NCBI GenBank assembly: GCA_034667945.1
Contig: JAXDQG010000535.1
Coordinates: 1-27,519 of the forward strand
Source: Acidimicrobiia bacterium
Lineage (GTDB): Bacteria > Actinomycetota > Acidimicrobiia > Acidimicrobiales > CAIXPF01
DNA length: 27,519 nt
Reading direction: 5' to 3'
The notes beneath the pieces are model-generated. The model had not been told where the DNA came from and made no database searches. It was given only the letters and a program-made list of their open reading frames with translations. The translations under genes were made by a program, and so were the position numbers. The stretch's first letter is position 1. Each line of letters opens with the position of its first letter. Shown here in pieces: positions 20,213 to 23,938 of this stretch.

Positions 20213-21625
20213 TCAGCCCGCTGCCGGTTGCGGCTGGGCTGACGTCGCGTGACCGACGTAGACCAGGCCCAGCTGACCGGCAACGCTGCGGGGCTCGGCC
20301 CAGGCGATGGCCCTGGCGTCACTCGTGACCAGGACGACCTGTTGATCGGCAGCCATCCGTAGGACGGTCTCGAGCAAGCGGACCCTCTCGGTGGCCTCCA
20401 GGTGGAGGAAGGGCTCTTCGAGCACGAGCGGTAGGCGTTCGTGCTGCGGACCGACCGCCCGCAGCTCCAACAGCCGATGGACGACCAGACGGGCTGTGTC
20501 GGCGGGTGCTCCGCGCTCGCTCTTGAACTCGGCGCCCAAATGCTCGCTCGTGGTCTGCCGCCGATGGGCCAGCGTCTCGATCGCCGCCCGATTGGCCAGC
20601 GCCCACTTCACCGCCACGCCGCCGCTGAGCAGGCGCCAGCGCGTGGTCAACAGGTCGTGCTGGGCTGCCGTCTCCAGCACCGCAGTACGGGCCATGTCGT
20701 CGGCCAACGGCCCGCTGCGGAGCTCAAGGGCCAGACGTGAGGACTCGGGGAGCGCGGCGCGCATCCGGCGTTCCTGGCGCTTGGTCGCCGAGAGATGCCG
20801 ACGATCGGCGAGCGCCACGACGAGGGACACGACAGCCAGAAGCAACAGCGCCTTGGCTGTCCAGTTGTTGTCCTGAAGCACGCCATTGAGCGCCAGCAGC
20901 AGCAGGCCGACTCCCGTGCAGGCGCCGGCGACGAGCAGCCCGAGCCGCATCACGCTCCGGTGTGCCTTGGCGGCCAGCTCCACCTGGCTGCGCGCCTCGT
21001 CGGCCAGCTCGATGGCCCGGGCATGCTGCACGACGAGCGCGCCGTTCGCACCGTGTCCCCCTTGCGGGCCGTGGGCCGCCTCGCCCGCATCGCTGTTGCT
21101 CCGGCCCCCGACTGCTGGTTGGTCAATAAGCGCAGCCGTCGCTTCGGCCAGACGCCGCTCGGCGGCCGCCAACTGGTCTGCCAGCTCCCACAGCTGGGCC
21201 TGGTCCAGGGTGGCCAGGTGGTGGGCCAGACGATGGTCGTCCGTGCCGGAGTCGTCGGCGTGCTCGACCTCGTAGGGGCCGAGGTGCATGAGCCGCAGCC
21301 CGGCGGTCCGGTCGATGCCGGATCCACCCAGAAGGTCGACCGACCCCCCAGCTCGGGTGAACGAGGCGGTGACCTCTCCGCCGGCATCGGCGTCGATGAC
21401 CCGGTGAGGCGAGGCCGCCGGGCGGAAGACCACGAGGTAGTGGCCGTTGCGGTCGGTGAGCTCCAGATGCACGCCGTCGCGGTCGCCACCGAGGCTCTCC
21501 AGCAGGCCGCTTACGAAACGGGTGCGGTAGCCGGGCTCGCCGAGCGCGACCACGGTGAGACCGGGATGGAAGTCGGCTGAGACGGATTGCTCACCGTCGT
21601 CGATGACCAGCCGTTGTAATTCCAA
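20213..21625 (-). CDS. Hypothetical membrane protein with coiled coils and degenerate SMC/Rad50-like (YhaN/AAA_27-type) termini
   Basis: 470 aa with two central TM helices flanked by helical segments; C-terminal LPLVLEEPFLHLE...QQVVLVTSD resembles the Walker B/D-loop/H-switch region; TTG start after GGACGAG. Confidence 0.75.
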   Translation of the reverse strand: MELQRLVIDDGEQSVSADFHPGLTVVALGEPGYRTRFVSGLLESLGGDRDGVHLELTDRNGHYLVVFRPAASPHRVIDADAGGEVTASFTRAGGSVDLLGGSGIDRTAGLRLMHLGPYEVEHADDSGTDDHRLAHHLATLDQAQLWELADQLAAAERRLAEATAALIDQPAVGGRSNSDAGEAAHGPQGGHGANGALVVQHARAIELADEARSQVELAAKAHRSVMRLGLLVAGACTGVGLLLLALNGVLQDNNWTAKALLLLAVVSLVVALADRRHLSATKRQERRMRAALPESSRLALELRSGPLADDMARTAVLETAAQHDLLTTRWRLLSGGVAVKWALANRAAIETLAHRRQTTSEHLGAEFKSERGAPADTARLVVHRLLELRAVGPQHERLPLVLEEPFLHLEATERVRLLETVLRMAADQQVVLVTSDARAIAWAEPRSVAGQLGLVYVGHATSAQPQPAAG

Positions 21626-21796: not shown

Positions 21797-22561
21797 GTGC
21801 GCACGATTCGGGTCATCCCCTGTCTCGATGTCGATAGGGGACGGGTGGTCAAGGGCGTGAACTTCGTCGACCTGCGTGATGCCGGCGACCCCGTCGAACT
21901 GGCGTCCCGTTACGACGCCGAAGGTGCGGACGAGGTGGTCTTTCTGGACATCACCGCCAGCTCGGACGCCCGGCGCACGATCGTCGACGTCGCCCGACGC
22001 ACAGCCGAGCAGGTGTTCATTCCCTTCACGATCGGCGGCGGCGTCCGGGCCGTGTCCGACGCCCGCGAGCTGCTCCGCGCGGGTGCCGACAAGGTGTCGA
22101 TCAATACTGCGGCGGTTGATCGGCCGCAGCTGGTGCGCGAGCTGGCCGTCGAGTTCGGCGCCCAGTGCGTGGTGGTCGCCGTCGATGCCCGGCGCACAGC
22201 TGGGCAGCCTTCGGGCTTCGGCGTCTACACGCACGGCGGCCGCGTGGCCACCCCGCTCGACGCCGTCGACTGGGCCCGTCAGGTGGAGGATGCCGGCGCC
22301 GGCGAGATCCTGCTCACCTCGATGGATCGCGACGGCACGCGCGACGGTTTCGATGTGGAGCTCACCCGGGCCGTGGCCGACGCGGTCGGCATTCCGGTGA
22401 TCGCCTCGGGTGGCGTGGGGACGCTGCAGCATCTGGTCGACGGGGTGATCGAGGGGCACGCCGATGCGGTGCTGGCCGCCTCCATCTTCCATTTCGGTGA
22501 GCATCGGGTGGGCGAGGCCAAGCAGGTGTTGGCCGACGCCGGCCTGGCCGTCCGCCTCTGA
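21797..22561 (+). CDS. hisF: IGP synthase cyclase subunit
   Basis: [54 protein letters not shown]. Confidence 0.97.
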
Positions 22562-22593
22562 TCGATCCCCGCTACTCCCGCCCGATACGCCAC

Positions 22594-22662
22594 CCGATCA
22601 GCCCAGCTCCGAGGCAAAGCCGTCCGATCAGTTCAGCCGATCAGCCCAGCTCGGAGGCAAAG
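22594..22662. repeat. 26-bp direct repeat duplicating the last codons and stop of the hydrolase gene
   Basis: ccgatcagcccagctc(c/g)gaggcaaag at 22594-22619 and 22637-22662, one mismatch. Confidence 0.85.
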
Positions 22663-23267
22663 GCGACCACCTGCTCGGCGATCTCGCCGGCGTGGCCCCA
22701 CACGAAGTGGTCGGCTCCCGCAATCGTGGTCACCGTGGTCGACGTCCACCCCGAGGTGGCCTCGCTCGCCGACGCAGGCGGGCGGAACTGGTCGTGCTCG
22801 GGCACCAGCAGCAGCTTCCGACGGGGGTCGGCGGGGGCGGCCATCTCGTCCACCGGCACCAGCCGGAGGGGTGGGGCGACACAGACCCAGCCGGCGTGGC
22901 TCGGCTCGCCGACGCTGAGGCTCATGTCGGCGCCGAACGACCAGCCGCAGAAGAACACCGGTGTGCCGGCAGGCACCTCGGCCGCCGCCGCCCTCAAGGC
23001 CGCGGCCGCGTCCAGACGCTCGCCTCGTCCTTCGTCGTGAGTGCCCGTCGATCCGCCGACACCTCTGAAGTTGAAGCGGAACGCACCCACGTTCTTCCTG
23101 GGCAAGAGGCCGAAGAGCTCGTCGATGAGCCCGGCGTCCATCGAACCGCCGTACAGCGGGTGCGGATGGGTGAGCACCGCCAGGGCACGGGCGTCGTCGG
23201 GCAGGTCGACCTCGGCCTCCAGCCGCGTGCCGTCGGGAACGTCGACCGTGAGGTGTCGGACGGGCAT
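22641..23267 (-). CDS. Alpha/beta-fold hydrolase (HPHP...GGS type)
   Basis: THPHPLYGGSMD, RFNFRGVGGS, GWSFG nucleophile elbow, HDQF, ADHF; TAGGGT -10 at 23278-23273, 5 nt before ATG 23267. Confidence 0.87.
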   Translation of the reverse strand: MPVRHLTVDVPDGTRLEAEVDLPDDARALAVLTHPHPLYGGSMDAGLIDELFGLLPRKNVGAFRFNFRGVGGSTGTHDEGRGERLDAAAALRAAAAEVPAGTPVFFCGWSFGADMSLSVGEPSHAGWVCVAPPLRLVPVDEMAAPADPRRKLLLVPEHDQFRPPASASEATSGWTSTTVTTIAGADHFVWGHAGEIAEQVVAFASELG

Positions 23268-23395
23268 GGCGCACCCTAACCCAGCAGGCATCAACCGGTC
23301 CCCGGGCCGAGTCCTCCCCTCGATCGGCGCCGGGCGGCGCACCCACAGTGCTGCGCTATTCCCGCCTGGACGGCCGGCTGGAGTACGTTCGAGGT

Positions 23396-23860
23396 GTGAC
23401 CAGCCCTTCCACCGATGAGGCGATTCAGTCCACCGAGAAAGCCGCTCAGTCCACCGAGAAAGCCGCTCAGTCCAACGAGAAAGCCGCTCAGTCCACCGAG
23501 AACGCCGCGGTGAAGGAGCGGTACACACGCGGGCGGCACACGGCCGAGGGTCAGCCGATCCGGATGCTGAACGACCGCATCCTGGTCAAGATCGAGATGG
23601 CCGAAGGCGAGCGGCGCTCCTCCGGGGGCATCCTCATCCCGGCAACCGCCCAGGTCGGCAAGCGGCTTGCATGGGCGAAGGTCGTGGCCGTGGGCCCGAA
23701 CGTGCGGGCCATGCAGGCCGGCGACAAGGTCTTGTTCAACCCGGAAGACCGCTACGAGGTCGAAGTCCGGGGCGATGATTACATCATCCTGCGAGAGCGC
23801 GACATTCACGCCGTTGCGGCCGACCGCCTCGAGGAATCCGCCCCGGGTCTGTACATCTGA
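23396..23860 (+). CDS. GroES/Cpn10-like paralog with N-terminal repeat extension and C-terminal GLYI tail
   Basis: PIRMLNDRILVK, ERRSSGGILIP mobile loop, VVAVGP, GDKVLF, YIILRERDIHAV; TACGTT -10 at 23384-23389, 6 nt before GTG 23396; no groEL adjacent. Confidence 0.85.
   Translation: MTSPSTDEAIQSTEKAAQSTEKAAQSNEKAAQSTENAAVKERYTRGRHTAEGQPIRMLNDRILVKIEMAEGERRSSGGILIPATAQVGKRLAWAKVVAVGPNVRAMQAGDKVLFNPEDRYEVEVRGDDYIILRERDIHAVAADRLEESAPGLYI
23426..23509. repeat. 21-bp tandem repeat x4 (QSTEKAA units) in the GroES-like N-terminus
   Basis: cagtccaccgagaaagccgct units at 23426, 23447, 23468 and 23489 with few substitutions. Confidence 0.92.
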
Positions 23861-23875
23861 GCCAGCTGCTCAGGG

Positions 23876-23910
23876 TCCGAGCCATCTCCTCAGATCCGAG
23901 CCATCTCCTC
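23876..23910. repeat. 16-bp direct repeat between the convergent groES-like and trpE(G) genes
   Basis: tccgagccatctcctc at 23876-23891 and 23895-23910. Confidence 0.85.
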
Positions 23911-23938
23911 CCGCGCCTCACCAGGAGACGGCACTTGG

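Follow-up and report, generated by a model that had tools for sequence, protein, structure and literature searches.

A roof-less GroES-fold paralog with a proteasome-type C-terminal tail in Acidimicrobiia, a putative seven-fold partner of the 20S proteasome

The window analyzed here is a stretch of 27,519 nucleotides from an Acidimicrobiia bacterium (contig JAXDQG010000535.1 of assembly GCA_034667945.1), which carries on its forward strand, at 23396..23860, a gene for a GroES-like protein, hereafter the paralog. This protein has the Cpn10 fold of GroES, its roof hairpin is deleted, and it ends in a conserved tail of the type found on actinobacterial proteasome activators; the proteasome itself is encoded in the same genome, and the family is restricted to proteasome-bearing genomes. 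We consider it reasonably probable that the paralog is an ATP-independent ring of GroES fold docking by its tails on the alpha-ring of the 20S proteasome. A preliminary description of the window, made from the letters alone, had suggested such a proteasome cap or a chaperonin-proteasome adaptor. This suggestion is partly supported, and it withstood each of the checks named there that can be made in silico: conservation of the tail, presence of prcBA and a distribution limited to PrcA-bearing genomes speak for it, while heptamer formation, docking and the sign of its effect are predictions. The elements on which the argument relies are the following.

23396..23860, forward strand: coding sequence of the GroES-like paralog, 154 residues and a stop codon (open reading frame list and translations)
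23558..23815, forward strand: Cpn10/GroES domain (Pfam PF00166, AlphaFold2 (AF2) model, Foldseek)
23594..23665, forward strand: equivalent of the GroES mobile loop, EMAEGERRSSGGILIPATAQVGKR (conservation, model confidence, alignments to GroES)
23693..23704, forward strand: site of the roof-hairpin deletion, G-P-N-V (alignment gaps)
23819..23845, forward strand: acidic flexible linker (ADRLEESAP) leading from the last strand to the terminal motif
23846..23857, forward strand: C-terminal G-L-Y-I, of the HbYX (hydrophobic-tyrosine-any residue)/GQYL type, followed by the stop codon at 23858-23860

Conservation of the C-terminal tail

The activators Mpa/ARC and Bpa/PafE need a C-terminal GQYL to dock between the alpha subunits and to open the gate, the Gln of this motif not being essential (PMC12288473, PMC8223512, PMC4254994). 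The tail of the paralog, AADRLEESAPGLYI, runs about 11-13 residues past the canonical end of GroES and finishes in ...EESAPGLYI. Its last 13 residues are predicted to be disordered (predicted local distance difference test, pLDDT, of ~49 in the AF2 model), so that the flexible extension of ~13 residues ending in G-L-Y-I described from the letters is indeed present. Strict conservation of the terminal G-x-Y-[LI] had been proposed as a check. In an alignment of 50 paralog members with 44-79% identity (alignment A1), Gly and Tyr are invariant (50/50) and the two flanking Leu positions are conserved at 90% or more; among homologues, positions -3 and -1 are each L in 98%. A census of 225 homologues containing the last-strand motif gave the same picture: 204 of them terminate in G-x-Y-[LIV] (GLYL 196, GLYI 3, GMYL 2, GQYL 2, GLYV 1). 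The 21 exceptions are mostly read-through or frameshifted metagenome calls, several of which have an internal TGLYL. A motif conserved to this degree is no chance ending.

The position of this end is conserved as well. It sits 12-15 residues past the last strand, and 12-13 residues past it in 198 of the 204 cases; the residues of the linker differ among homologues and the length of the tail is constant, which is what a geometric constraint on docking would produce. Distant members of the family end in GQYL, exactly like ARC and Bpa. The family is large, with at least 7,980 homologues by word-indexed search and 1,372 at E <=0.001 by exhaustive HMMER search over 1.84 billion cluster representatives. 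The preliminary description had also mentioned GLYL-ending GroES paralogs in other actinomycetes, correctly, as Streptomyces has a GLYL version.

Distribution of the paralog and of the proteasome

Co-occurrence with prcA/prcB, the other check proposed, was analyzed in 401 Actinomycetota genomes, using the A1 profile for the paralog and TIGR03691 (bacterial alpha-subunit) for PrcA. A1 scores fall into two well-separated groups: the paralog gives full-length matches of at least 98 bits, and canonical GroES gives matches of at most 60 bits. All 125 genomes with the paralog also have PrcA; 72 have PrcA alone, 204 have neither, and none has the paralog alone, i.e. the paralog was not found by this profile in any of the 204 PrcA-less genomes. 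These tallies take in five unpublished genomes, one with both proteins (G088) and four with PrcA only (G001, G048, G120 and G336); without them the counts are 124 for both, 0 for the paralog alone, 68 for PrcA alone and 204 for neither. In this phylum sample the paralog is restricted to proteasome-bearing genomes.

Since relatives are not independent, co-absence inside paralog-bearing groups is more telling than the raw tally, and three independent co-absences of paralog and PrcA were observed inside paralog-bearing families. In G062, a genome 100% complete in 2 contigs, the paralog, PrcA/B, ARC, Dop/PafA and Bpa were all not found; the congener G379 is positive for PrcA/B, ARC and Bpa as well as for the paralog (Dop/PafA not being searched there). 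This pair bears out a loss of the paralog together with the whole Pup-proteasome system. In genus g45 of family f21, PrcA and the paralog are missing from 3 genomes out of 3, and Bpa was not found in the two that were searched for it (G022 and G081). In family f39, G037 is without PrcA, paralog and Bpa, and its family-mate G216 has PrcA and the paralog. A second sample, of 301 genomes of the order at least 90% complete (including one unpublished genome, G511, with PrcA only), has the paralog in 273 genomes and PrcA in 298; 271 of the 273 paralog-bearing genomes have PrcA.

By exact look-ups of PrcA and of the paralog, the lineages that bear the paralog include Streptomyces, Micromonospora, Aeromicrobium, Phycicoccus, Kineosporiaceae/Quadrisphaera, Egicoccus, Egibacter, Kribbella and Sporichthyaceae, as well as many Acidimicrobiia, among them Microthrix, Ilumatobacter and Iamiaceae. 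A second, canonical GroES match is usual in these genomes in the A1 scan, and the paralog is therefore an addition to GroES and no replacement for it. Four records of metagenome-assembled genomes (MAGs) titled "Bifidobacterium breve", "Bifidobacterium sp." or "Acidobacteria bacterium" (L084, L105, L120, L057) carry Acidimicrobiia-type paralog loci at 72-78% identity; probably either the records bear a wrong title or the contigs were assigned to the wrong bin.

A Cpn10 fold without roof

GroES heptamers assemble through their first and last strands, and the GroES dome is closed by a roof hairpin. Cpn10 (PF00166) is the sole Pfam family matched by the paralog (23558-23815, E 1.3e-19, 70.4 bits against a cut-off of 21.1), which has no homology to Bpa (PF10759) or to AAA+ ATPases. 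In the AF2 model, built on a 50-sequence alignment, the beta-barrel core has a pLDDT of 80-89. The top 35 Foldseek matches in the Protein Data Bank (PDB) are all GroES, Cpn10 or Gp31 chains, with template modelling (TM) scores of 0.5-0.66, and the top ranks include T4 Gp31 and the Cpn11/20/23 subunits of 7ekq; a look-up in the ESM Atlas returned Cpn10 clusters from Actinomycetota only. Among solved structures the best sequence match is Cpn20 of 7ekq (E 3.5e-15), whose N-terminal domain aligns with the paralog free of gaps across the roof region.

Compared with GroES/Cpn10 (PF00166; PDB 1aon, 1p3h), the paralog shares the fold, the hydrophobic tripeptide of the mobile loop and the first and last strands of the core, which are conserved in the 50-sequence alignment. 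The mobile-loop motif GERRSSGGILIPATAQ is kept and is almost invariant across the same alignment; its GGILIP aligns with the canonical loop and retains the hydrophobic tripeptide, and the loop is predicted to be flexible (pLDDT ~52). The claim of an intact GroEL-binding mobile loop thus stands for the motif, GroEL binding itself being a prediction. Unlike GroES, the paralog has lost the roof hairpin, as had been read from the letters: the gap falls between AVGP and NVRAM and amounts to 9 residues against solved GroES structures and 10 residues against the GroES of its own genome, to which the paralog is 33% identical. Also unlike GroES, it adds a disordered N-terminal extension and the 13-residue tail, lies outside the groES-groEL operon, and scores under the cut-off of all 14 NCBIfam GroES models (at best 51.1 bits against 96). 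It is thus a Cpn10-fold member that departs from functional GroES in three features: the roof, the scores on curated models and the groEL operon.

Proteasome and other tail-bearing proteins in the genome

The source genome is a soil MAG of Acidimicrobiia type, ~80% complete. A lack of prcAB would have spoken against a proteasome partner; prcB and prcA are present and adjoin ARC and Dop on one contig (C790), and Bpa lies on another (C727). ARC ends in GQYL and Bpa in GTYL. The canonical groES-groEL pair is kept, on contig C152. The genome was screened for the pattern G-x-Y-[LIVM] at the C-terminus of 16,724 candidate open reading frames (ORFs) of at least 80 aa with a G+C content at third codon positions (GC3) of at least 0.70. 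Only five match: ARC (GQYL), Bpa (GTYL), the paralog (GLYI), an ATPase of the DUF5925-AAA type (GLYL) and an ORF ending in CGRYL, this last being a probable chance match.

The DUF5925 (PF19347) and AAA ATPase, of 371 aa, lies outside the window (contig C731, 2562-3677, forward strand) and ends in RRGLYL. Among its 120 best homologues 113 end in G-x-Y-L, mostly GQYL. The family is present in 15 of the 401 Actinomycetota genomes (including Streptomyces, Nocardia and two Acidimicrobiia), 14 of which have PrcA. This ATPase is a second candidate for an undescribed proteasome partner.

Gene structure and neighbourhood

The features around the tail and the Cpn10 domain are the following.

23396..23557, forward strand: low-complexity N-terminal extension of the paralog (homologue comparison)
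23425..23508, forward strand: tandem repeat inside the extension, four 21-bp units coding for STEKAAQ-type heptads
from ~23549, forward strand: conserved core of the paralog
21797..22561, forward strand: hisF, last gene of the upstream his cluster (Pfam His_biosynth, E 2.9e-83)
22641..23267, reverse strand: alpha/beta-hydrolase gene, divergent (weak Pfam Hydrolase_4 and Abhydrolase_6 matches)
23939..26086, reverse strand: fused anthranilate synthase TrpE-TrpG, convergent (NCBIfam TrpE-clade3, 1086 bits; Pfam Chorismate_bind and GATase)

The ORF list gives an open frame of 170 aa at 23348..23860 on the forward strand, from an alternative upstream GTG at 23348. The start proposed earlier, the GTG at 23396 that yields 154 aa, agrees with the V/M-T-S-P-... 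N-termini of close homologues. Databases record both exact forms, under the names GroES or "GroES family chaperonin". The number of residues preceding the core ranges from 0 to 192 across homologues (median 34). The repeat of the extension has 4.0 copies with a 95% match (Tandem Repeats Finder), and one soil-metagenome contig is without exactly 21 nt at 23455, i.e. one repeat unit, with the frame kept; the copy number of the STEKAAQ-type repeat therefore varies in frame within natural populations. A soil metatranscriptome contains one contig of 167 nt that is 96% identical to 23695-23861, derives from a relative and shows 4 substitutions, all at third codon positions. It was not taken as proof of expression, because the sequence is that of a relative and DNA carry-over is possible. 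No promoter or terminator was found by scanning 23150-24000, and an Rfam scan of 22500-24500 gave no match. Past the stop codon, a 16-nt direct repeat, TCCGAGCCATCTCCTC, is present in two copies whose starts are 19 nt apart (23876-23910), in the 78-bp convergent intergenic region, where no terminator-like hairpin was found; two metagenome variants have a 3-nt deletion at 23905, within this repeat region.

The his cluster upstream of the paralog has the order hisD, hisB, hisH, hisA, an ORF on the opposite strand and hisF. This ORF (20213-21625, reverse strand, 470 aa) interrupts the cluster between hisA and hisF and has no Pfam match; a similar gene occurs in 1 of 80 related loci only. Of the same 80 loci, 57 have hisF upstream of the paralog and 65 have trpE downstream; a YgfZ-like gene is present in 57, and the alpha/beta-hydrolase neighbour recurs in 40. 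The closest related locus (L043) has a 66%-identical TrpE-TrpG downstream, on the same strand as the paralog; in most other relatives the downstream match to the fused TrpE-G has ~32% identity over ~370 residues and is probably an unfused trpE. As noted in the preliminary description, groEL is not adjacent to the paralog, whose neighbours are the hydrolase and trpE-G genes; it was found beside the paralog neither in the window nor in any of the related loci examined. A link through a proteasome operon was dropped, the paralog and prcA being tens to hundreds of kb apart wherever they are on one contig. We only infer that expression together with genes of amino-acid biosynthesis would be in keeping with the role proposed for the proteasome in amino-acid recycling.

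Proposed mode of action and comparison with known systems

The diverged GroES-fold subunits would, like GroES, most likely assemble into a seven-membered ring, and, with the hairpin that forms the GroES roof deleted, this ring should have an open axial pore. Without ATP, it would probably dock coaxially on the seven-fold alpha-ring of the 20S proteasome, its seven flexible tails (G-L-Y-I/L) inserting in the pockets between alpha subunits as do those of ARC/Mpa and Bpa/PafE. Most likely, it would act by opening or modulating the gate, competing with ARC and Bpa as it does so; given docking, we hold activation to be somewhat likelier than inhibition or a role in assembly. The mobile loop is near-invariant yet flexible, which implies a second binding partner; the loop may thus make a further contact, be it to the surface of the alpha-ring, to substrates or to GroEL.

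By analogy, the paralog would most likely work like Bpa and ARC, without homology to either. Bpa/PafE (Rv3780; PF10759) is likewise small, forms a ring as expected for the paralog, and has a flexible C-terminal stretch ending in G-x-Y-L. Both are confined to prcBA genomes and, like the paralog, Bpa is encoded away from the proteasome locus (Delley 2014, PMC4254994). They are related neither in sequence nor in fold, the paralog matching Cpn10 only: Bpa assembles helical bundles into a dodecamer, the paralog should form a heptamer of beta-barrels with the same seven-fold symmetry as the alpha-ring, and binding to the 20S is proven for Bpa and predicted from sequence for the paralog. ARC/Mpa has a C-terminal GQYL tail docking in the same alpha-ring pockets, but is a hexameric ATP-driven unfoldase without homology to the paralog. 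Like the proposed paralog ring, the 11S activators (PA26/PA28) work without ATP, match the alpha-ring in symmetry as heptamers and have an open channel; unlike it, they are helical bundles of eukaryotes, possess an activation loop and do not require a penultimate Tyr, and they are not homologous to it.

The nearest structural precedent is another protease cap. The chloroplast Cpn11/20/23 caps the heptameric ClpP ring via its mobile loops and represses proteolysis (PDB 7ekq; bioRxiv 10.1101/2021.07.26.453741); the same loops serve Cpn60 and ClpP, the two interactions being mutually exclusive (bioRxiv 10.1101/2021.07.26.453741). The arrangement, a GroES-type seven-fold ring coaxial on the seven-fold ring of a self-compartmentalising protease, is the one proposed for the paralog. 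The two differ in the means: Cpn11/20/23 docks by its mobile loops into ClpP clefts and has no HbYX tail, whereas the docking element of the paralog is presumably its C-terminal tail and the target presumably the 20S proteasome. ClpP was rejected as the main target of the paralog, since it occurs in bacteria generally and the paralog follows PrcA in its distribution.

Weighing of the alternatives

Several observations weigh against a ring that docks on the 20S proteasome. The paralog is missing from 72 of the 197 PrcA-positive genomes of the phylum sample, and was not found in the A1 scan of PrcA-positive Mycobacterium, Nocardia and Arthrobacter; it is not a universal companion of the proteasome, unlike Bpa, which is reported in all proteasome-bearing actinobacteria (PMC8223512, PMC4254994). 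In the order sample, 27 of the 28 paralog-less genomes keep PrcA (27 of the 298 PrcA-positive ones), which shows the paralog to be dispensable and repeatedly lost. Part of the co-occurrence is due to phylogeny, as each of the big PrcA-less clades may represent one loss. Two 91%-complete MAGs (G441 and G493) have the paralog, and PrcA was not found in them. For G441 this corresponds to an assembly gap, because the contig ends inside dop, where pup-prcBA should follow; in G493 (locus L125) ARC is present and the dop-pup-prcBA-pafA block of its congeners G437 and G533 was not found, so that either a contig is missing or the 20S was recently lost with its partners retained. The paralog sits among biosynthetic genes, at the actinobacterial junction of his and trp, and in no case next to genes of the proteasome. 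Finally, the mobile loop, retained as judged from its motif, would suit a role linked to GroEL just as well. As a side observation, the genes that follow ARC in G493 are def, fmt and rpe.

If the tails bind the alpha-ring, they might do so without activating it, the paralog competing with ARC and Bpa as a cap or inhibitor that keeps them out, or templating or guarding alpha-rings as an assembly chaperone. All the evidence for docking applies equally here, and a modulator of this kind fits the dispensability in many PrcA-positive lineages. A GroES-type cap has been solved on a protease ring in a single case, 7ekq, where it represses proteolysis, and this precedent keeps an inhibitory or competitive role of the paralog open. 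An HbYX-dependent bacterial assembly factor was raised as a possibility by Delley 2014 (PMC4254994), and PbaA/B and Pba1/2 are comparable HbYX-bearing factors. However, the loss of the roof favours an open channel over a plug, and in known systems tails of the HbYX type whose penultimate residue is Tyr are sufficient for gate opening; we regard binding without activation as rather unlikely. Still less probable is an adaptor holding GroEL by the mobile loops and the 20S by the tails, so that unfoldable clients are handed to degradation. It would account for two separate flexible elements, the loop (GGILIPATA) and the tail, both near-invariant, and Cpn11/20/23 does use the same loops for Cpn60 and ClpP. 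Against it, GroES mobile loops are all on one face of the ring, two large rings held at once by a ring of ~10-kDa subunits would be without precedent, and in the ClpP case the two interactions exclude each other. A bolder form of this idea, in which GroEL (through the mobile loops) and the 20S (through the seven G-x-Y-L tails) are coupled, unfolded GroEL clients are routed through the roof-less pore and, the gene being putatively co-transcribed with his/trp genes, triage and amino-acid recycling are tied to amino-acid starvation, seems to us equally improbable.

The proteasome link could also be a phylogenetic coincidence, the paralog being a specialised co-chaperonin of an actinobacterial GroEL paralog and its tail serving another purpose or as a degron. 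The Cpn10 fold, the mobile-loop motif and the database names are in line with this, but the roof is deleted, every NCBIfam GroES cut-off is missed, and groEL is never the neighbour in the loci examined. The paralog occurs in 0 of the 204 PrcA-less genomes, although all of these need GroEL/GroES, it was lost with the Pup-proteasome system between congeners, and its tail is identical in type to those of ARC and Bpa. We give this explanation the slightest probability of all. An ATP-independent GroES-fold ring docked on the 20S by its tails is thus the reading that we retain.

Significance

The recognised interactors of the bacterial proteasome are Mpa/ARC, Bpa/PafE and Cpa only, none of which matches the seven-fold symmetry of the alpha-ring, and the regulation of activator binding is an open question according to the same 2025 review (PMC12288473). 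No description of a GroES-like proteasome partner was found in the literature searched, most subscription journals being outside its coverage. Delley et al. screened the M. tuberculosis genome for HbYX termini (PMC4254994). The paralog was not found in the genus of M. tuberculosis and M. smegmatis, which would explain why it was missed by the field. As it occurs only in proteasome-bearing genomes, the paralog is probably an undescribed seven-fold partner of the proteasome. If so, it would be the first symmetry-matched partner of a bacterial proteasome and, having a GroES fold and no dependence on ATP, would constitute a new structural class linking the chaperonin and proteasome lineages. As Streptomyces and Micromonospora bear the paralog and are easy to handle, the idea is directly testable by standard biochemistry.

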